From Kiritimatiellia bacterium (GTDB taxonomy: Bacteria; Verrucomicrobiota; Kiritimatiellia; RFP12; UBA1067), in NCBI GenBank assembly GCA_051884805.1, contig JBJEWA010000135.1:7464-71463 (forward strand): a DNA stretch of 64,000 nucleotides, given 5' to 3'. Made by a program: the position numbers and the translations under genes. Below, piece by piece: positions 16,682 to 40,735 of the stretch (position 1 is its first letter; every line of letters begins with the position of its first letter). The notes under the pieces are model-generated. The model saw nothing but the letters and a program-made list of their open reading frames with translations, was not told the origin of the DNA and did no database searches.

Positions 16682-18184
16682 TCAGTCTGCGACCGTCAGC
16701 GCCAGGCGAAAGCCCTGGGACCCCGTGCCGCCCGCGGCCAGCGGATTTACCGACGTCTCGAACTTCGCCGCCGCATGCGCCGAACTCCGGCAGGCGACTT
16801 TCGCACTGCTCGACCGCCAGCTGCCGCCGGCCGCAACATGGCAGTTGTACGCCCCCGCACCGACGCTTTCCGCATTCCCCGAATACCCGACCGGGCCGCG
16901 CTCGTCCACCGTCGGCGTGTCCTCCGTGTTGGCGGCGAACGTTCCCCAATAGTCGAGGCAGAGTTCCGCCACGTTGCCGTACATGTCGTAAAGCCCCCAG
17001 GCGTTCGGCGCATAGCTGCCCACCCGCGCCGTCGCCAGCGCGCCGGTCGCGTCGGTCAAGTCGGGCGCAGCCGCCCCGCTGTTCGCGTAGTAGCGCGCAA
17101 TTCCCTCCAGCGCGGACTGCGCCTGCGTCAGGTCGTCGCTCGCCAGCTCCTCCCCGGTGTACAGCGCCGTCTCCGTCCCCGCCCGCGCGGCGTATTCCCA
17201 CTGCGAGTAGGTCGGCAGGTCCAGGTAGTCGCCAAGGCCGGTACGGGCGCGGAACTGGTAGATGAACGACGATTCGAGCGTGACCGCGTGGCCGGCCGCC
17301 TCGCTCTCGCCCGGCCAGGTGTCGGGGTCGCGCAGATGATGCTTCTGGGCGGCGTTCGCCGGATTGCCCCAATGCGTGAAGTGGACGTTCTCCACCGGTC
17401 GCGTCCCCCAGACCGACTCGTCGCCCTGCGAAACGGAGGACGGATTCGAGCCGAAGACGAGACTGTACTGCTTCTGCGTCACCTCGAAGACGCCGAGGTA
17501 GTAGTCGTGCGAGAACTTGACGTAGTGCACCAGCTCGGAATTGTCGCGCCGGCCGACCTGCCCGGCCGGCGCCCCGAGCTTCGCCGTCTTGCCAAAGGCC
17601 TGGATCTTGCGAAAGACCATCTTCGTGGTGCGATAGACGTCCGACCCGATGCCGCCGGGCAGTTCGGATTCCGCCGTATAGTAGGTGACGTTGGCGCCGG
17701 GCTCGGCCTCAAGATCGACGACCATGTACAGCGGATGCTTCAGCAGGCGCTGGCGCTCCGCCTCGGCGGCGGCCTCGGCGGCCATGCGCTCCCAGAACTC
17801 CGTGTTCGCCGCCCAGTGTTCCGCATTCGTCGGCCAGACGGTCAGGACGGCACGCGCCCCTTTCGTCTTGTGTTCGGGCCATGAGGCCCGCGCATCCCAG
17901 ACCAGGCGGTTCACGCCCGCGCTCATGACCAGCGTTCCGGCGTGCCCGACGAGGTTGGTGAAGTTCTCGGCGCCGATCGAGACCCAGCCCGGATCCGCCT
18001 GGTCCAGCGACCGGTTGGCGTTGGTCTGAATATCGACCGTCAGGATCACGGGCGCCTCCGACAACCGGTATTCGATCGTCGTGACGCGACGACCGTTCTG
18101 GCTCATCGTCACCTCCGACACCTCCGGCACGGCGAGCGCGGCGAACGACGACAGGATCGTCAGCAAGGGCAACAGGCGTTTCAT
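16682..18184 (-). CDS. FGE/SUMF1 domain protein, tandem paralog of 15314..16672
   Basis: Same motifs as its neighbour (YYLGVFEVTQKQYSLVFG, YAPNAWGLYDMYGNVAELCLD, GGSW...GFRL). Signal peptide MKRLLPLLTILSSFAALA. Confidence 0.85.
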   Translation of the reverse strand: MKRLLPLLTILSSFAALAVPEVSEVTMSQNGRRVTTIEYRLSEAPVILTVDIQTNANRSLDQADPGWVSIGAENFTNLVGHAGTLVMSAGVNRLVWDARASWPEHKTKGARAVLTVWPTNAEHWAANTEFWERMAAEAAAEAERQRLLKHPLYMVVDLEAEPGANVTYYTAESELPGGIGSDVYRTTKMVFRKIQAFGKTAKLGAPAGQVGRRDNSELVHYVKFSHDYYLGVFEVTQKQYSLVFGSNPSSVSQGDESVWGTRPVENVHFTHWGNPANAAQKHHLRDPDTWPGESEAAGHAVTLESSFIYQFRARTGLGDYLDLPTYSQWEYAARAGTETALYTGEELASDDLTQAQSALEGIARYYANSGAAAPDLTDATGALATARVGSYAPNAWGLYDMYGNVAELCLDYWGTFAANTEDTPTVDERGPVGYSGNAESVGAGAYNCHVAAGGSWRSSSAKVACRSSAHAAAKFETSVNPLAAGGTGSQGFRLALTVAD

Positions 18185-18197
18185 GGCAGCGGCTCCT

Positions 18198-18488
18198 TCA
18201 ACGTACGAGAATCACAAGTCCGCGATTCAATGTCGTGGCGAAGTCGCCGACGACGTTTGAAAACGCCCGGCTGAACGTTCGCAGATCCAACGTGCCGTCG
18301 GCGCCCTCGCCCGTGGCGGCGGCGGACTCAACCGTTGACACCTCGACGCCGACATGGCCGGAGGCATCCCAGAAACCGTCGGCCGCATCGGCCGGCAGAT
18401 ACGGACTCATGTCATTCCAGACAAACGACGCAACCGCCGTTGCCGACAACAGCATCATCGCCGCCAGAAGCATCCCCAGTCTTCGCAT
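18198..18488 (-). CDS. 96-aa secreted protein; C-terminus ends GLVILVR
   Basis: Start MRRLGMLLAAMMLLSATAVA, preceded by a GGAAAGGAGGGA SD. First gene of the 18488->11016 string. Confidence 0.55.
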   Translation of the reverse strand: MRRLGMLLAAMMLLSATAVASFVWNDMSPYLPADAADGFWDASGHVGVEVSTVESAAATGEGADGTLDLRTFSRAFSNVVGDFATTLNRGLVILVR

Positions 18489-18552
18489 CAACCGCCGTCC
18501 CTCCTTTCCGAAACCGCGCACCGCACGCGGCGCATTCCTCGCATTGCCCGCC

Positions 18553-18581
18553 ATTATACCATTTATACTCACCTCGCACAA
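18553..18581 (-). promoter_or_regulatory. sigma70-like promoter TTGTGC-N17-(TGg)TATAAT for the 7-gene string
   Basis: Read on the minus strand: -35 at 18581-18576 and -10 at 18558-18553. Confidence 0.45.
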
Positions 18582-18593
18582 GGGGTCCCCTTC

Positions 18594-18644
18594 CAAAAGA
18601 CAGCAGCCCTGCTCGCGGGCGTGACGGTCTTTTACGCGGGCTGC
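18594..18644 (-). terminator. possible terminator downstream of the Fic gene
   Basis: Minus-strand stem GCAGCCC...GGGCTGC with inner pairing, followed by TGTCTTTTGG. The hairpin is imperfect. Confidence 0.35.
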
Positions 18645-18716
18645 CGGGGCGCAGCCGGGGAATCAGCCTCCTGACTGCGGAAGTCGCGACGATACGCGAT
18701 GTCAAAGGGATGACAT

Positions 18717-19655
18717 TCACTCATTCCCGCCCAATGCCTCCGTCAAAACCGAAAGTCGCGCAGCTTCCGCCTCAACGAAGATACGAATCATCGGCACGGC
18801 ATTGGCATCCCGGTGATAGACGGTGAACGCATCATAGTAAGCGACTCGATTTTCATATTTGATGCTGATCGGAAGATATCCAGCGCGCATAAGGATGAAG
18901 TTGGCGAGAAGACGTCCCGTTCGACCGTTCCCGTCAATGAACGGATGGATTGCCTCAAAACTGATATGGAAAAGCGCAGCCGCCACGAGCGGATGAAGGT
19001 GTGTTGCGTTCAGATCGCGCACCCAGCCTTCCATTTGCGGCACAACGAGATAAGGTTGCGGCGGCGTATGCGCCGCGCCCGTAATGACCACCGGCATCCG
19101 GCGATACACCCCGCGGTCCTGCGGCTGGTCGGCCAACACGAGCGCATGCAGTTCCTTGACCAGACGCTCGCTCATCGCCTCGCCTCGACCGACCACTTCC
19201 GCCAGGAAGTTAAAGGCATCACGATGGCCAATGGCCTCCAGGTGATCCTTGAGCGGCTTCTGGCCGATGGTCACGCCCGCCAGGACGAGCGCGGTCTCAT
19301 TCAGTGTGAGCGTATTACCCTCAATGGCCGTCGAGTTATGGGTGTAGTCAACCATGAACGACTCTTGCCAGCGCTGCTTCTCACTCGGCGTGAGCGGACG
19401 CCGCCTCGACAACAACTCCTTCAGGGAATCGACCTTCAGCACCAATCCCATCAACTCCTTCGGGATTCCACCATAGCGCAACGAGCGCCCATCTACCGGG
19501 CGCGGACAATCGGAAGGAATGCGCCAATGCTTGCCTGCCAGTATTGCCCCCGCAATCTTTCCTTCCACGCACAACATCCGTACGCGGCGCGCTGAAATCT
19601 GCCATCTTTCAGCCGTTTCCCTAACAGAAACCAACTTTTCACCGATTGTTCCCAC
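18717..19655 (-). CDS. Fic-family AMPylase (class II, intramolecular inhibitory helix) with N-terminal excisionase/MerR-like HTH
   Basis: The Fic motif HPFIDGNGRTGR and the inhibitory motif STAIEGN ([ST]xxxE[GN]) lie upstream in the same chain. The N-terminus VSVRETAERWQISARRVRMLCVEGKI is an HTH. GTG start. Confidence 0.9.
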   Translation of the reverse strand: MGTIGEKLVSVRETAERWQISARRVRMLCVEGKIAGAILAGKHWRIPSDCPRPVDGRSLRYGGIPKELMGLVLKVDSLKELLSRRRPLTPSEKQRWQESFMVDYTHNSTAIEGNTLTLNETALVLAGVTIGQKPLKDHLEAIGHRDAFNFLAEVVGRGEAMSERLVKELHALVLADQPQDRGVYRRMPVVITGAAHTPPQPYLVVPQMEGWVRDLNATHLHPLVAAALFHISFEAIHPFIDGNGRTGRLLANFILMRAGYLPISIKYENRVAYYDAFTVYHRDANAVPMIRIFVEAEAARLSVLTEALGGNE

Positions 19656-19661
19656 GCGGAT

Positions 19662-19670
19662 AGTATAACA
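19662..19670 (-). promoter_or_regulatory. extended -10 box TGtTATACT, 6 nt upstream of the Fic GTG
   Basis: The minus strand reads TGTTATACT-atccgc-GTG(19655). Confidence 0.35.
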
Positions 19671-19867
19671 CAGTATCGGAAGGATAGCAACGGCAAAAAA
19701 TGAATATTCGCCTAACTATACTTCCGTTTCCAGAATGAAAGATACGGATGACGTGTGTTCAGTCCCATTCTCAACCAGACCAGACTTCGCCATGAGAAGC
19801 CAATCCTCAAATGCGGTTGTTTTGCTCGCGATCACACAACATTAGGCATGTAATTTGGATAGTCGAT

Positions 19868-19896
19868 TTGCATTGAGACGCAACACTTGCTATACT
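19868..19896 (+). promoter_or_regulatory. sigma70-like promoter TTGCAT-N17-(TGc)TATACT for the HTH/nuclease/methylase string
   Basis: Read directly. The ORF-track start at 19887 lies inside this promoter. Confidence 0.45.
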
Positions 19897-19931
19897 TCGC
19901 TTCGGAAACTAACGAAAGAACCATACAATGG

Positions 19932-20294
19932 TTGCCCGCTATAAAATTTTGGAAACTGCTGACAGACAAGGACATGACGAAAACCGGATTGCGCATGACA
20001 TCTGGCCTATCCTCTTCGACTATTGCAAGAATGGCGCGAGGTGGTTACATAAGGGCATCCGTCCTCGTGCGTCTCTGCGAAGTCCTCGGCTGTGGCATCA
20101 ACGAAATCTTCCAGACTCTCCCAGCCACCCAGTGCGCGACGCCAGACAACAGTCGTGAGAGTTGCGCCCACGTACCGAACAAGAAGCGGAAATTACGAGA
20201 CAGGTCAACGCGACAGGGAACATTATGGCACAGAAAGACCAAGTTGTTGCCGCACTGCAGAAGTGTGGTGGGTATGCCACGTTTTCCGAGCTGA
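19932..20294 (+). CDS. small XRE/Cro-type HTH protein (possible controller protein)
   Basis: IKFWKLLTDKDMTKTGLRMTSGLSSSTIARMARGGYIRASVLVRLCEVLGCGINEIFQ fits a YozG/Cro-like HTH. A TTG start is assumed. A basic ~60-aa tail overlaps the next gene by 70 nt, so the 3' end is uncertain. Confidence 0.5.
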   Translation: MPAIKFWKLLTDKDMTKTGLRMTSGLSSSTIARMARGGYIRASVLVRLCEVLGCGINEIFQTLPATQCATPDNSRESCAHVPNKKRKLRDRSTRQGTLWHRKTKLLPHCRSVVGMPRFPS

Positions 20295-20923
20295 ACCACC
20301 TTGTCGACTCCTCGTCGTGGGGTACTAAAACGGTAGCTGCGACCATCCGGCGGATCGTCCAACAAGATCCAAAGTTGTTTTATCGCATTATTCCGGGACA
20401 GTGGGGCTTGGTTTCGATGCGCAAATTCATCGAAAGCCAAGGTGCTACCGAGAGATCAGAGAGCTACACGCATGGGTATTATCAAGGACTTTTGGTTGAG
20501 CTTGGAAATGCCTGCCACTTCAAAACCTACGTTCCGCCACAAGACAAAAATCGTCCGTATGCACACAAAAGACTGTCCGACATCATTTCCCTTCCGGTGA
20601 TTTATGACTTCACTCACCAAAAAATCTTGCGCAAGGCCAAGACTGTCGATACGATTTGGTTTAACAGCCGAGAGATGCCAACCGCATTTTTTGAAGTCGA
20701 ACACACGACAGATATACAGAACTCTCTTGATAAATTCTACGAATTACAAGACTTCAATGCCAGATTCACCATCGTATCGGCAAGAAAGAATCGCGCTCGG
20801 TTTGATGACCTCCTGAGCTATTCCCGTTATGATTCCATTCGCAAGATGGTTTCGTTTTACGATTATGACAAGCTTGTCAAACTTCACGACTTGAAAATGG
20901 CCGAACTTGAAGTGGCGATGTGA
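20225..20923 (+). CDS. HARE-HTH-like N-terminal domain + restriction-endonuclease-like (D...EVE) C-terminal domain protein
   Basis: The N-terminus VVAALQKCGGYATFSELNHLV...IRRIVQQDPKLFYRIIPGQWGL resembles HARE-HTH. The C-terminus HGYYQGLLVELG...TVDTIWF...AFFEVEHTTDIQNSLDKF resembles a nuclease core. Call rests on pattern recall only. Confidence 0.55.
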   Translation: MAQKDQVVAALQKCGGYATFSELNHLVDSSSWGTKTVAATIRRIVQQDPKLFYRIIPGQWGLVSMRKFIESQGATERSESYTHGYYQGLLVELGNACHFKTYVPPQDKNRPYAHKRLSDIISLPVIYDFTHQKILRKAKTVDTIWFNSREMPTAFFEVEHTTDIQNSLDKFYELQDFNARFTIVSARKNRARFDDLLSYSRYDSIRKMVSFYDYDKLVKLHDLKMAELEVAM

Positions 20924-20941
20924 GATCTGATCAATGATAAA

Positions 20942-22087
20942 ATGGAGCAACCGATGTATTCTGATTCGTCAACAACAGCTTTCCATAACAGCAGTGATAT
21001 GCGGAGGCGCGATTTCTGCAAGGGCGTGGCGGCCACTGCCGTCTCACCAATACTACCACTACAAAGTGTTGGAGAGGAATCAGTACCGATTAGTACAGTT
21101 GGGCGCAACCGGGCAAAAACTGCCGTAGCAGATATTGACCACTTTGAGAAAGGTGATGTTCATTTATATTGCGGCAACAGCTTATCATTTTACGAAAAAT
21201 GGGCGGCTCCAACGGTAATCGTCTCCGATGGAGCATATGGGATTTTGGGATTCGAAGGTGACACATTCGATCACACCGGAGTTCCCGAATGGTATCGTGC
21301 ACACATTGAACAGTGGTCAAAGTTTGCACGGCCAAATACGACGCTTTGGTTTTGGAACTCCGAAATTGGTTGGGCGGCCGCGCATCCAGTTTTAGAAGCA
21401 AACGGATGGCGCTATCAAAACTGCAACATCTGGGATAAGGGATTAGCCCACATTGCCGGCAATGTCAATACCACTAAAATTAGACGTTTCCCGGTTGTCT
21501 CAGAGGTTTGCGTTCAATACGTACGAGAAAATAGAATCAATGGCGACCCGCTGAAGGTTTGGCTTAAAAAAGAATGGCAAAGAACGGGGTTGCCATTACG
21601 ATGCGCAAATGAAGCATGTGGCGTCAAGGACGCGGCAGTACGCAAATATCTTGACCAAGGGCATTTGTGGTATTTTCCACCAGCAGACATGTTTGAACGC
21701 TTGTCTTCCTTTGCCAATGAACGCGGCGAAAAATCCGGCAGACCTTATTTCTCATTAGATGGTAAACGACCCTTGACCGGTGATCAATGGTCTTTGATGC
21801 GCGCAAAATTTCATTGTCCGCATGGTTTTACCAATGTATGGAACCGTCCGCCAATCAGCGGCAAGGAACGCATAAAAAATGAAAACAACAAGGCACTTCA
21901 TCTAAATCAAAAGCCTCTCGACCTGATGGAAATGATTATCAAGGCTTCATCAGACGAGGGCGACGTGGTGTGGGAGCCGTTTGGTGGTTTGTTCTCAGCT
22001 TCACGGGCCGCAATTAACTTGAAGCGGAAAGCGTACGGCGGAGAGATAAACCCCTATTATTTTAATGCTGCCATATCCCGTTTTTGA
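20942..22087 (+). CDS. beta-class N6A/N4C DNA methyltransferase (PF01555-like) with an atypical motif IV
   Basis: The C-terminal HLNQKPLDLMEMIIKASSDEGDVVWEPFGGLFSASRAA is the AdoMet motif I region. Motif IV reads VIVSDGAYG in place of DPPY/SPPY. The true start may be downstream of 20942. Confidence 0.8.
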   Translation: MEQPMYSDSSTTAFHNSSDMRRRDFCKGVAATAVSPILPLQSVGEESVPISTVGRNRAKTAVADIDHFEKGDVHLYCGNSLSFYEKWAAPTVIVSDGAYGILGFEGDTFDHTGVPEWYRAHIEQWSKFARPNTTLWFWNSEIGWAAAHPVLEANGWRYQNCNIWDKGLAHIAGNVNTTKIRRFPVVSEVCVQYVRENRINGDPLKVWLKKEWQRTGLPLRCANEACGVKDAAVRKYLDQGHLWYFPPADMFERLSSFANERGEKSGRPYFSLDGKRPLTGDQWSLMRAKFHCPHGFTNVWNRPPISGKERIKNENNKALHLNQKPLDLMEMIIKASSDEGDVVWEPFGGLFSASRAAINLKRKAYGGEINPYYFNAAISRF

Positions 22088-22322
22088 TGTCTCAATCATC
22101 GTCAACACCGTACGGAGACATGAATGACCTAATCTAATTCCATTACCGCAGATCAACTGATCTGAACGCAAATCACTCTTGAAAACTACGACAAAAAAGA
22201 GCTACATGGGATTTGCAAGGCAATCCTCTTTGGATACGCCTTGTCATGTGTTTGTAGCGGCTGTCGTAGGCCTTCAAGGCATGTGGCAAGGCGTATCCTT
22301 TCCAATCACGAAGGGATACATT

Positions 22323-23201
22323 ATGGGTACACGTGAAATTCTTGAGTCTGCCAAAGAACACCTTTACGCTCTTAGGGGAGAGGTCTTTGATGTTTTGACT
22401 ATCACCCAGCCGACTTCCGTCGATGAAATTAGAAACCTCGCCAAGATCGTTTCAAAACTATCCCCGCTCATAGGCAACCTCATCGAGTTCAAAATAACCG
22501 AATTTTTAAATTCGAAGTTGAATAGTGACGACGGGAAATGGAAGCGACAAGACCCCGGGTTTCCCGATGTGATTTTTGACGGAAATCTCACCCCTGCTCC
22601 GGGTTTTGAAATAAAAGCTTGGTTCCCGTTTGCAACAGAAATCACCGGGCGATTCAAAGATTCAGAGGAGAGATTCAAAAATGACGAAGTTGATCTCGTA
22701 ATTCTGGCTTGGTTACCAGAGCATATCTTCTGGGGTAAACCTCGTATTATCGACGTCTGTGTCGTTTCTGGCAAATCTGTTGCCATTGCAAGAGATCTGC
22801 ATTATCACAAACCTCCTCACTATTTGGTTATTGAGCCAGAAAACACCTCGGATAGGACAGCAAACCTACAGCAGACAAACACAAACGGCTATGTGATACA
22901 AGACTCATCCGAGGCGGGATTAAAAGCGGCGAAGGCGATTGTTAAGTCATGGGGAAAGAATGGGGCCTGTTATAGCACATCGAAGCTGTACCAAGATAGG
23001 CTAAAAGGTCTAATGGGCAAGGTAGAATACCGTCTTGATACGAACTACGCAAAAATTGATCGTATTGAACATAAAGGCATAGAAGAATTCAAGCGCACGG
23101 TACTTGGGCGCGAGCTTGGCGGCGAAACTATCAAGTCATGGGGTTCCATAATCACCGATCTCCCACCCGACGTAGCAAAATCACTTTTGAATATTCAGTA
23201 A
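22323..23201 (+). CDS. PD-(D/E)xK nuclease, candidate type II restriction endonuclease
   Basis: GFPDVIFDGNLTPAPGFEIKAW gives PD...(13)...EIK. Start set at MGTREIL with a GAAGGGA SD. It lies immediately downstream of the methyltransferase. Confidence 0.6.
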   Translation: MGTREILESAKEHLYALRGEVFDVLTITQPTSVDEIRNLAKIVSKLSPLIGNLIEFKITEFLNSKLNSDDGKWKRQDPGFPDVIFDGNLTPAPGFEIKAWFPFATEITGRFKDSEERFKNDEVDLVILAWLPEHIFWGKPRIIDVCVVSGKSVAIARDLHYHKPPHYLVIEPENTSDRTANLQQTNTNGYVIQDSSEAGLKAAKAIVKSWGKNGACYSTSKLYQDRLKGLMGKVEYRLDTNYAKIDRIEHKGIEEFKRTVLGRELGGETIKSWGSIITDLPPDVAKSLLNIQ

Positions 23202-23402
23202 CTTGCTATGAGCGTCGAATCGTAAGTTGTCTTGGATTCAAGGAAAATTACCGGCGAAACGACACATTATGGAGCTTCATTCCCAGATATTGCACCTTAA
23301 AGCCGATAATGCCTCCAACAGACACAACACTTTATTGACGATTTCATATCGAGTGGGCTGCATGAGACGCTAATGCGGCGATAAACCGCCGACTCCTTTC
23401 TT

Positions 23403-38571: not shown

Positions 38572-38615
38572 CGCCGCATACGCGAATCTTGAAATGTTCA
38601 AAAGCCAATGTCGCG

Positions 38616-38675
38616 GACAAGCCCTGCGGCATAAGGACAAGTCCTGCGGCATAAGAACAAGTCCTGCAGCATAAA
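38616..38675. repeat. 3 x 20-bp tandem direct repeat (GACAAGyCCTGCrGCATAAG)
   Basis: Units at 38616-35 gacaagccctgcggcataag, 38636-55 gacaagtcctgcggcataag and 38656-75 aacaagtcctgcagcataaa. Confidence 0.85.
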
Positions 38676-38807
38676 GGGATGCGACGGCCCCATCAGCGGA
38701 CGAAACCGATAATCGGCAATATTCATCCGTTATCCGCCAATTTCCAGCACCCCGCCGAGGGCCTGTCCCTCCACAGCCTTTCGCCAAGCGTAAGTTTTGT
38801 GTTGCGG

Positions 38808-39644
38808 CTAGAGATTGAACTCGCACTGGCGAGCGGAAATTCTCGGAAACGGCGCGATGCCGATAATCGTCCACGGGTTAGGCATATGCCGACGCTGAAA
38901 CTGCAGCATGGTTCCCATGTAGAGATGAAGGTCGATCTTATCTGCATTCAGGAATTCGATGCCGTACTTCTCCTTCACCGACTCCCTCGCCTGCTCTTCG
39001 GATCCTAGCCTCTTCTTCTCTCCGATGAAAAGCGTCCCCAGCTCCCAGTCGAGTATCTTGTGCGTTGACTTCTCTCCGTCGGCATCAGTAATCTCGTACT
39101 TGAAGTCGTAGGGTATTCTTTCGACACGTCGAAACTCCAACCGCCATTCTTCGGCGTGGAATAAATCCAGCTGCCTTATCTCTTCCGTAACCGTCTCCGG
39201 TTTTTCATCATCGGCCTTAGCTGTTTCACACCGCAGCCGAACTGAAGTCGGTCGAAAGATGGCGAGACTGCCTGAATTCTTCTCGACGAGTTCCCGAAGA
39301 TCTGCGAACCGCGTATAGACGGCGGCCTTGTCGAGTATCGCCCGTCGCCGCTGTTCCCTCTTGTTCTCGGTCCCGATCCTGTCCCTGGGATAGATTCGCT
39401 GGTCACGATCAATGTGTCGACTTTCTGGACGGGGATCGTTCGCCTTGTAGGTCTCGCACTCGATCCACTGGTATTTGCAGAACTTCTGATCGTCGCTATA
39501 AAGGCGGAAGGATATCGGAAATATTCTGACCCACGATCCGTCGGCGCGGATTCCTGCCGTACAGACCGTCTCGATATATTTCCTTGAAGCGCAGGGATAA
39601 GTCTTGACGAGAATCAGCACCCTGTCCTGTTTCAGATCTTCCAT
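38808..39644 (-). CDS. 278-aa hypothetical protein (no family recognised)
   Basis: Start MEDLKQDRVLILVKTYP..., 11 nt after the upstream stop, with an AAGG SD. Cys-containing N-terminal region and a highly charged middle. Confidence 0.6.
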   Translation of the reverse strand: MEDLKQDRVLILVKTYPCASRKYIETVCTAGIRADGSWVRIFPISFRLYSDDQKFCKYQWIECETYKANDPRPESRHIDRDQRIYPRDRIGTENKREQRRRAILDKAAVYTRFADLRELVEKNSGSLAIFRPTSVRLRCETAKADDEKPETVTEEIRQLDLFHAEEWRLEFRRVERIPYDFKYEITDADGEKSTHKILDWELGTLFIGEKKRLGSEEQARESVKEKYGIEFLNADKIDLHLYMGTMLQFQRRHMPNPWTIIGIAPFPRISARQCEFNL

Positions 39645-39655
39645 GGATTGAGCCT

Positions 39656-40567
39656 TCAGATTAGTTCGCCCTCGACACCCGTGCGTTCTGCGATAGCGTT
39701 CAGAACCCGCGTTCGGTGGCACTGCGCGGGATTCGCTTCGAAGCACGTGAGGGCGATGTGCCGCCCGCCCTCGACGAGCCGCGCCAGGACATCCACCGTA
39801 TCACCGACACGCGGCAGCACGGTCTTCTCATAACGTGCAAAGAGTTCATCGTAGTCAGACTGATACCTGAGATCGGTCCGCTCGAAACTCGGTATTCCCA
39901 GTTCGGGGAAATGGCGGTACTCGATGCCAAGCCCCTCGCAGGCATTCTGCAGCGTCGATTTTGAGAATCCGTACTTGCGGCTGATCGGATTCCTGCGTAC
40001 GTCACAGAGAACCTCCACGCCGTTGCGTATGAGCGCATTCAGGTAGTTCTCGAAGGAACGCCCCTCATAACCGATGGACGCCAGGGAAACGCTCTTCGTC
40101 GGGCGTGCCGCCTCGATGGCGGCCATGGCCGCCGTGTCGTCCTTCAGCACAATGTCCCTGATCTCGCTGTTGATCGCCCAGTAGGGGAACTTCCGATAGA
40201 CGTCGGCAATGAGATCTTTTCCGCGCAGCGGATAGTCTTTGCGGAATCGCATGAAGCGTGTGGCCGTCGCACGCTTCGACCAGACGCAGATCTCACCTTC
40301 CTCCGTCAGCATCCATGTCTTGTGGTCTGAATCGCACGGATTGCGCGCCTTGAGCAGACCCTTTTGGGCGAGCCGGTGGACATCCTGCGAAAGGGTGGGA
40401 GAATAGCAGCCTTGCCGATAAGGGATGAAGTCGTAGGACGGAACATCCTCCTCAAGCCGCGTGTACATGAACATGAGCTTCTGAATCTCAATCGGCCTCA
40501 GTCCATCGGACTCCGTCCCGATGAGCGCCAGGATGTGACTCTCCTGTGCAGCAGTCATTTCAGACAT
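39656..40567 (-). CDS. fusion protein: N-terminal wHTH/Panacea(DUF4065)-like domain + C-terminal DUF488 domain
   Basis: The C-terminal half SIGYEGRSFENYLNALIRNGVEVLCDVRRNPISRKYGFSKSTL...GIEYRHFPELG...ALTCFEANPAQCHR matches DUF488. The N-terminus IEIQKLMFMY...YDFIPYRQGCYSPTLSQDVHRLAQKGLL is the basis of a weak Panacea-like call. Confidence 0.65.
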   Translation of the reverse strand: MSEMTAAQESHILALIGTESDGLRPIEIQKLMFMYTRLEEDVPSYDFIPYRQGCYSPTLSQDVHRLAQKGLLKARNPCDSDHKTWMLTEEGEICVWSKRATATRFMRFRKDYPLRGKDLIADVYRKFPYWAINSEIRDIVLKDDTAAMAAIEAARPTKSVSLASIGYEGRSFENYLNALIRNGVEVLCDVRRNPISRKYGFSKSTLQNACEGLGIEYRHFPELGIPSFERTDLRYQSDYDELFARYEKTVLPRVGDTVDVLARLVEGGRHIALTCFEANPAQCHRTRVLNAIAERTGVEGELI

Positions 40568-40609
40568 TCCCCCAGCCGACAGATATGGGTAGCGTTGCTC
40601 ATTCTTTGC

Positions 40610-40618
40610 AGTGTAGCA
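40610..40618 (-). promoter_or_regulatory. extended -10 box TGcTACACT, 7 nt upstream of a 15-codon uORF ATG (40602)
   Basis: The minus strand reads TGCTACACT-gcaaaga-ATG. The uORF stop (40557-40555) forms ATGA with the in-frame ATG at 40558. Confidence 0.35.
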
Positions 40619-40735
40619 CAACCGAAGGCCGACGTCAACGGGTCTCAGTGCGCATTCGAAACGATGGAAAGTGTAATATCTAATGGAACACTTTTCTATG
40701 ATGGAGTACCAAAATTGACTTCTCCGCGAACGCGG

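Follow-up and report, generated by a model that had tools for sequence, protein, structure and literature searches.

PDC-M19 is one of 145 "phage defence candidates" in PADLOC-DB v2, all of them derived from gene cassettes embedded in BREX, DISARM and type I restriction-modification (RM) systems (Payne, Hughes, Fineran & Jackson 2024, bioRxiv 10.1101/2024.01.29.577857). Supplementary file 8 of that study enters cassette CAS_00089, with the gene order FAM_02799>>FAM_02993, as "Assign as candidate PDC-M19" (10.1101/2024.01.29.577857). Here we analyse a pair of adjacent genes, A and B, that lies in the region 38808-40618 of a 64,000-nt stretch of DNA (hereafter the window) from contig JBJEWA010000135.1 of a Kiritimatiellia bacterium (assembly GCA_051884805.1). 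The longest open reading frame (ORF) of gene A, 321 aa, matches the PADLOC model PDC-M19A (PDLC04505) with an E-value of 6.7e-89 (residues 28-317 against model positions 6-288 of 294), and gene B matches PDC-M19B (PDLC04508) with an E-value of 1.7e-74 (residues 5-264 against model positions 2-258 of 269). Both matches are full-length, and the order, adjacency and strand of the two genes are those of PDC-M19 (A>>B). Judged by these sequence matches, the pair is the already catalogued PDC-M19 and not an undescribed system, as an initial annotation of this DNA had supposed. Homologues of the pair share the embedding in type I RM systems and the DISARM neighbours of a family that is itself a computational candidate, whereas the window copy is solo and lies outside any defence system; the PADLOC model does not itself demand that a pair be embedded in BREX, DISARM or type I RM. 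As a solo copy on a chromosome, the window pair is an ordinary representative, and it adds only one more member, in a Kiritimatiellia genome, to the family.

The two ORFs occupy 38808-40558 of the minus strand. Gene A (39656-40558, 300 aa from its likely start) encodes an N-terminal winged helix and helical linker fused to a DUF488 domain, and gene B (38808-39644, 278 aa, beginning MEDLKQDRVL) encodes a protein with a predicted tandem oligonucleotide/oligosaccharide-binding (OB) fold. They are separated by a spacer of 11 nt, read from the sequence at 39645-39655, which confirms the tight linkage described in the initial annotation; the peptide strings quoted there are likewise present in the two proteins. 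Genes A and B form a tightly spaced operon, and this arrangement is general in the family. Linkage and neighbours were counted in the 80 best loci of gene B homologues, a locus being informative where enough upstream DNA was available. A full-length A homologue lies directly upstream of B on the same strand in every informative locus (78/78), the two families being almost obligate companions, and the distance from the stop of A to the start of B falls between -4 and +21 nt in 70 of 79 loci, with a mode of 12.

Relatives of gene B are widespread and sparse. A scan of one genome per species (185,579 species genomes) recovered at least 563 confirmed stretches encoding such a relative, patchily distributed over Verrucomicrobiota, Chloroflexota, Myxococcota, Acidobacteriota, Nitrospirota, Proteobacteria, Actinomycetota and other phyla. 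Outside chromosomes, 23 plasmids carry a B homologue, and on at least 15 of them a DUF488 gene adjoins it; the same holds for 7 temperate Gordonia phages. The DUF488 partner on these plasmids and phages is short (140-160 aa), has no winged helix, and may be convergent or co-directional with B and on either side of it. The partnership between DUF488 and dual-OB proteins is kept across phyla and in three gene arrangements, and because it survives both the fusion or fission of domains and the inversion of genes, we regard it as strong evidence of a functional link.

The only recurrent neighbours of the pair are HsdM, HsdS and HsdR. In 16 of the 80 loci it sits inside a type I RM operon: 12 of these have RM genes to either side of the pair and the other 4, which are truncated, to one side only, and the embedded pairs lie between hsdS and hsdR on the same strand. 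Cassettes of the PrrC/EcoprrI type occupy the same position, but neither gene is related to the PrrC anticodon nuclease in sequence or in fold, and no RM partner accompanies the window copy. Other neighbours include matches to the DISARM proteins DrmD (E 1.5e-188) and DrmA (E 4.5e-139). The census reproduces the signal of guilt by embedding, and does so mostly in uncultured genomes. Some RM operons carry several embedded cassettes, since extra unrelated genes stand between hsdS and the PDC-M19 pair at L033 (1748-4995), L004 (1355-4657) and L076 (1024-2787); one of these genes encodes a 587-aa protein with the P-loop GQNDHGKSS. A further context is seen at L091 (6920-15414), and alike at L092, where a PDC-M19A homologue 72% identical to gene A has no B gene beside it. 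This solo A is flanked on one side by a RhuM gene and on the other by a type II RM-like cluster, which encodes two methyltransferases (N6/N4 and C5), a GHKL-type ATPase of 740 aa and an unknown protein of 410 aa; the region resembles a defence island in which the partners are different.

Temperate phages provide a comparable setting. The DUF488/B pair of the Gordonia phages lies beside the immunity repressor in the lysogeny module, the position at which Gordonia phage CarolAnn carries its proven defence genes (PMC6426606). The phage B gene might be read as lacking a DUF488 partner, its neighbour gp44 being a helix-turn-helix repressor; this reading was overturned by gp42 of phage BatStarr (L086 6813-7265), a gene on the opposite strand that is convergent with gp43, the dual-OB homologue, and whose short product is a DUF488 protein, matching the family's own DUF488 profile with E 2.5e-28. 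Gene gp42 is annotated as "HipA-like toxin" or "HipA toxin", and the same gene is found in Nymphadora, Herod, TimTam and Eviarto.

Several lines of evidence indicate that the cassette moves. Eleven of the 23 plasmid records with a B homologue are conjugative, and the plasmid homologues adjoin KfrA and toprim/DUF3991 genes. An A protein 74% identical to that of the window occurs on at least 24 contigs, and a single cassette of about 2.0-2.2 kb recurs with 98.7-99% nucleotide identity in at least three different flanking contexts (L093, at about 404-2640, L095 and L097). The cassette of L095 is bracketed by direct repeats of roughly 60-80 nt (325-410 and 2730-2786) whose units are short, GC-rich hairpins, and the same repeat element lies upstream of the cassette in L097; these repeats may be a substrate for recombination or insertion resembling repetitive extragenic palindromes. 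The cassette is a horizontally mobile accessory module.

The architecture of the two proteins bears on what this module might do. The longest ORF of gene A begins at TTG 40621. We consider the in-frame ATG 40558 its likely start from sequence comparison, because the resulting 300 aa agree with a 99%-identical NCBI protein ("DUF488 family protein [Kiritimatiellia bacterium]", from a Kiritimatiellia metagenome-assembled genome) and with most homologues (299-300 aa), and because a Shine-Dalgarno-like run, GGGGGA (40568-40573, minus strand, read from the sequence), ends 9 nt ahead of it. The AlphaFold2 (AF2) model of gene A has a pLDDT of 93.9. Residues 1-150 (40109-40558, minus strand) comprise a predicted winged helix resembling MarR and SSV1 F-93, followed by a helical linker, and carry the motif IEIQKLMF...DFIPY..GCYS. 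A profile of this N-domain matches the SSV1 F-93 structure 1tbx (E 6.3e-5), and Foldseek returns 1tbx together with many MarR-family regulators at probabilities up to 1.0; on profile and model evidence the domain has a winged-helix fold. The initial annotation had hesitated between a winged helix and the Panacea (SocA, DUF4065) fold. The former stands and the latter finds no support, as no Pfam match to Panacea (PF13274) was obtained for four N-domains even at E<=10, nor for any of 25 full-length members. The Panacea consensus, QKL(L/M)(F/Y)...(Y)G.(Y/V), is only loosely like the motif of gene A.

The N-domain was also said to be promiscuous, in the manner of Panacea, and this we reject. The matches listed in a profile search are either DUF488 fusions or proteins of 140-200 aa without a domain call, of which there are many. 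Three such short proteins were inspected (L131-L133, assembly contigs from ENA samples ERZ25039471, ERZ25039489 and ERZ25039533), and all lie in fragmented loci, two of the three with separate DUF488 pieces, B pieces and further short ORFs next to them. The apparent stand-alone copies are probably frameshifted fusions arising from indels in draft assemblies, or pseudogenes, and not a separate architecture; the N-domain is joined to DUF488 or lies beside fragments of it in the loci inspected.

The DUF488 domain itself, recognised in the initial annotation, is clear: residues 170-286 (39701-40051, minus strand) match PF04343 with E 5.9e-25 to 6.5e-25 and 88.5 bits against a gathering cut-off of 22.2. 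DUF488 is a large family for which we know of no demonstrated function, and it is common in single-domain proteins (4,445 matches). Its invariant residues in gene A are D186-V-R188-x-N190-P191-x-S193-R194, C272-x-E274, P277 and C280-H281-R282. Members of the rhodanese and cysteine-phosphatase superfamily have a Rossmann-like fold in which the catalytic cysteine closes a strand, a phosphate-binding loop comes next, and an arginine sits at the N-terminus of a helix (CX5R in classical members). In the AF2 model the invariant C272 ends strand 268-272 and C280-H281-R282 starts helix 282-293, which gives a spacing of CX9R and not CX5R. Foldseek gives the DUF488 part weak matches to the phosphatases DUSP1 and laforin (E about 1e-2, template modelling (TM) scores 0.2-0.35) and also weak matches to methylases of the CbiL/CysG type, and a 2023 classification by Burroughs and Aravind reportedly predicts just such a resemblance of DUF488 to dual-specificity phosphatases and diphthine-synthase-like methylases. 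A sequence search found no solved DUF488 structure. The Pfam family DUF488-N3a (PF22751) scores gene A of the window at 18.6 bits (E 0.0024), below its 27-bit cut-off, and matches all 25 of 25 gene A homologues below threshold (best E 6e-6); a short plasmid DUF488 homologue passes the cut-off, at 37.4 against 27 bits.

Gene B is not the orphan partner matching nothing that the initial annotation took it for. Besides its PADLOC match, it belongs to a family of 2,734 clusters at 50% identity (E<=1e-3). Its AF2 model (pLDDT 82.4, pTM 0.81) contains a first OB barrel at about residues 4-90 and a second at about 125-268, with a disordered insert at 146-172, and we conclude from this model that the protein is a tandem OB-fold protein with two OB folds per chain. 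The best Foldseek matches in the PDB are the HIN domains of p204/IFI16, RPA70, Teb1 and RecO, and the best structural match among viral models is the baculovirus LEF-3, which binds single-stranded DNA (ssDNA). With RPA70, Teb1, the HIN-200 proteins (p204/IFI16/AIM2) and LEF-3 it shares the two barrels as well as conserved aromatic and basic residues. Among 25 sequences 41-71% identical to the window protein, 49 columns are invariant, many of them aromatic or charged. Gene B has no Pfam family above threshold. The Pfam family DuOB (PF22557, "dual OB-containing domain") is a recurring, though not the sole, match of diverse and distant homologues; the window protein scores 13.7 bits against a cut-off of 27, and the best of its relatives 23.7 bits (E 5.6e-5). 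A direct assignment to DuOB was rejected, as scores are sub-threshold throughout, and on the sequence evidence gene B appears to be a distant relative of that family. The models DUF488-N3a and DuOB capture neither the fused winged-helix architecture of gene A nor this sub-family of gene B.

A further described system to which the pair invites comparison is DarTG. The C-terminal domain of the antitoxin DarG binds the toxin DarT, and gene A shares with that domain the motif EIQKLM(F/Y)...DF.P..YG.YS. About 50 residues of gene A align weakly with it (7yk3_B, E 0.04), and the PADLOC model for DarG matches three gene A homologues with E 5e-4 to 2e-3. Like DarG, gene A is a two-part protein that joins an enzyme domain to one that is helical or a winged helix, and it has a nucleic-acid-directed partner. 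The likeness is weak and limited to these 50 or so residues, however; the order of the domains is reversed in gene A, and the window pair has neither a macrodomain nor a DarT-type ADP-ribosyltransferase (no Pfam or PADLOC match to Macro or DarT).

We hypothesize, with somewhat more confidence than doubt, that PDC-M19 is an accessory module in conflict with phages or mobile elements and that it acts on nucleic acids. This reading draws on PDC-M19 membership, the strict linkage, the partnership kept through rearrangement, the RM and DISARM context, the carriage on plasmids and in prophages, the mobility of the cassette, the predicted folds, and the record of similar candidates, four of eight randomly chosen PADLOC candidates having protected E. 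coli from phage in an independent study that did not include PDC-M19. A defence or toxin-antitoxin role, guessed at in the initial annotation, has accordingly become the leading reading by way of the type I RM embedding, the DISARM-type neighbours, the plasmids and the prophages. In such a module, B would bind ssDNA or DNA ends arising in infection or transfer, and would serve as sensor, as targeting subunit or possibly as growth-arresting effector, with A as its obligate partner. The DUF488 domain of A, predicted to adopt a Rossmann-like fold of the phosphatase/rhodanese type in which the Cys...Cys-His-Arg loop is invariant and the pocket is rich in arginine, might carry out phosphoryl transfer or end-processing on nucleic-acid termini, a chemistry that is speculative. 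The winged helix could tether A to DNA for autoregulation, or could dock onto B in the way that DarG uses its C-terminal domain to dock onto DarT. A more specific proposal, that an RPA/HIN-like tandem-OB protein senses or attacks ssDNA or DNA ends and is controlled by a DarG-style partner with a winged helix related to the DarG C-terminal domain and a cysteine-dependent, phosphatase-like DUF488 enzyme that processes nucleic-acid termini, would amount to a new mechanism, and we offer it only tentatively.

Some observations weigh against a conflict module of this kind. The searchable literature yielded no experiment on PDC-M19. Ordinary genes of metabolism or housekeeping surround the pair in the window, as they do at about three quarters of the homologous loci. 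Gene A occurs without B at L091/L092 and on five IMG/VR contigs, so joint action of A and B is not universal. The basis for calling DUF488 phosphatase-like is the weak Foldseek matches and the classification reported by Burroughs and Aravind, and the OB likeness of gene B, at a TM score of about 0.3 and 7-14% identity, is generic and not evidence of membership in any of the matched families.

The closest rival, which is compatible with defence and which we consider rather unlikely, is a toxin-antitoxin pair, possibly acting by abortive infection, where B is a nucleic-acid-binding toxin and A a DarG-style antitoxin whose DUF488 domain reverses or prevents the damage and whose winged helix binds the partner and represses the operon. 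Antitoxin-first order and tight coupling would suit such a pair, as would the asymmetry of the partnership (in bacterial loci B nearly always has a DUF488 partner, whereas solo copies of A occur), the weak but repeated likeness of the A N-domain to the C-terminal domain of DarG, and the many invariant charged residues of B, which exceed what a plain single-stranded DNA-binding protein needs. Yet proteins of 300 and 278 aa are large for a type II pair, B has no known toxin fold, there is no Panacea match, and distant B homologues occur without DUF488 on a Sulfolobus plasmid, as for the homologue on pSOG2, which has no DUF488 neighbour. The plasmid and phage variants, without the winged helix and often convergent, do not form one autoregulated operon. 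Taken together, the asymmetry, the gene order and the DarG likeness leave room for a variant of DarTG type, acting as a toxin-antitoxin pair or by abortive infection, in which B would do the harm.

Two other explanations dispense with host defence, and both seem improbable to us. One is nucleic-acid maintenance outside any conflict, for example in repair or end-processing of damaged DNA or RNA, with the OB protein recruiting a DUF488 phosphoesterase and the genes spreading by ordinary horizontal transfer. Such a role would fit the housekeeping and metabolic surroundings of most loci, the window included, the wide occurrence of DUF488 in those 4,445 single-domain matches, and the standing of the tandem-OB proteins RPA and RecO as classic repair factors, but it agrees poorly with a distribution as patchy as the 563 or more stretches in 185,579 species genomes, with the strong over-representation of the pair inside RM and DISARM operons, with its carriage on conjugative plasmids and in prophage lysogeny modules, or with near-identical cassettes (98.7-99%) in different contexts. 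The other, to which we likewise give little credence, is a benefit to the mobile element itself, through protection or processing of incoming ssDNA (anti-restriction or establishment) or through plasmid stabilisation. The B homologues on 23 plasmids, 11 of them conjugative, beside KfrA and toprim/DUF3991 genes argue for it, as do those in temperate Gordonia phages and IMG/VR contigs and the fact that LEF-3 is the best viral structural match of B; an anti-restriction role is nevertheless hard to square with co-directional embedding between hsdS and hsdR in host restriction systems, and the majority of copies lie on chromosomes, away from any element genes.

The immediate surroundings of the window copy are unremarkable. 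It is flanked by genes for a glycoside hydrolase family 106 (GH106) rhamnosidase, a convergent AraC/Peripla_BP_3 regulator, an extracytoplasmic function (ECF) sigma factor accompanied by a putative anti-sigma partner without a family match, an LTXXQ protein and GlnS; no defence gene, tRNA or integrase adjoins the pair in the window, and an NCBIfam search of the locus gave nothing significant. The pair had been called an AT-rich insert. Its GC content, 55.1%, is indeed low relative to the window, which averages 63.7%, and falls at the 7th percentile among segments of equal length, but the description is overstated, since the adjoining GH106 and AraC-type genes are themselves at about 59% and the real low-GC island of the window lies elsewhere, at 18-23 kb. 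Two metagenome contigs, independent of each other and both 100% identical to the window, stop at 40681-40683, about 45 nt upstream of the -35 box of the pair, and three further window-identical contigs stop inside or just past gene B. These ends at the border of the cassette could reflect strain heterogeneity there or simply low coverage. No empty insertion site was found: when the flanking sigma factor and regulator were looked up by exact protein sequence, only window-identical contigs came back, and these break at or inside the pair.

The low-GC island is an observation in its own right. It spans 18,000-23,300, falls to 45.6% GC and contains four ORFs: a Fic/DOC-type gene (18717-19655, minus strand) with the motif HPFIDGNGRTGR, a 253-aa unknown (20162-20923), a 381-aa protein that resembles N4/N6 DNA methyltransferases (20942-22087) and a 340-aa unknown (22179-23201). 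Together they look like an RM-type or defence islet.

Upstream of gene A, a sigma-70-like promoter candidate is found on the minus strand at 40610-40638 (TTGACG, a 17-nt spacer and TACACT, with a TG preceding the -10 box). The region holds three promoter-like sites where shuffled sequences lead one to expect 1.4, so its position is the only real argument for the candidate, which ends 7 nt ahead of a short upstream ORF (uORF); relatives of the locus have a TATAAT box at a comparable place. The uORF (40555-40602, minus strand) has 15 codons, encodes MSNATHICRLGECLK and runs from ATG 40602 to TGA 40555, overlapping the gene A ATG 40558 as ATGA. The initial annotation described this ORF and its overlap correctly and took them as a sign of coupled translation. 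An equivalent uORF ending in ATGA appears in 10-18% of shuffled leaders, and none is present at five homologous loci that were checked (L091-L097, gene A 72-74% identical at the protein level). Given this lack of conservation and the chance-level frequency, a regulatory role by coupled translation finds no support and the uORF is probably fortuitous. Downstream, a structured intergenic region of 236 nt (38572-38807, minus strand) separates gene B from the convergent AraC-type regulator, and its membership in the module is uncertain. It contains three tandem 20-nt repeats, GGACAAGyCCTGCGGCATAA, at 38615-38674, and its RNA is more stable than shuffled sequences (fold z = -3.5); Rfam gave no match anywhere in the locus, this region included.

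These data lend independent support, mostly from uncultured phyla, to the view that the partnership of DUF488 and dual-OB proteins is obligate, mobile and tied to restriction systems. They also define the residues and domains to mutate, and make the family a worthwhile experimental target. If PDC-M19 does act in defence or as a toxin-antitoxin pair on nucleic-acid ends, it would represent a new enzymatic principle in bacterial immunity, and if the DUF488 mechanism is as novel as we propose, it would provide the first biochemical function for DUF488.

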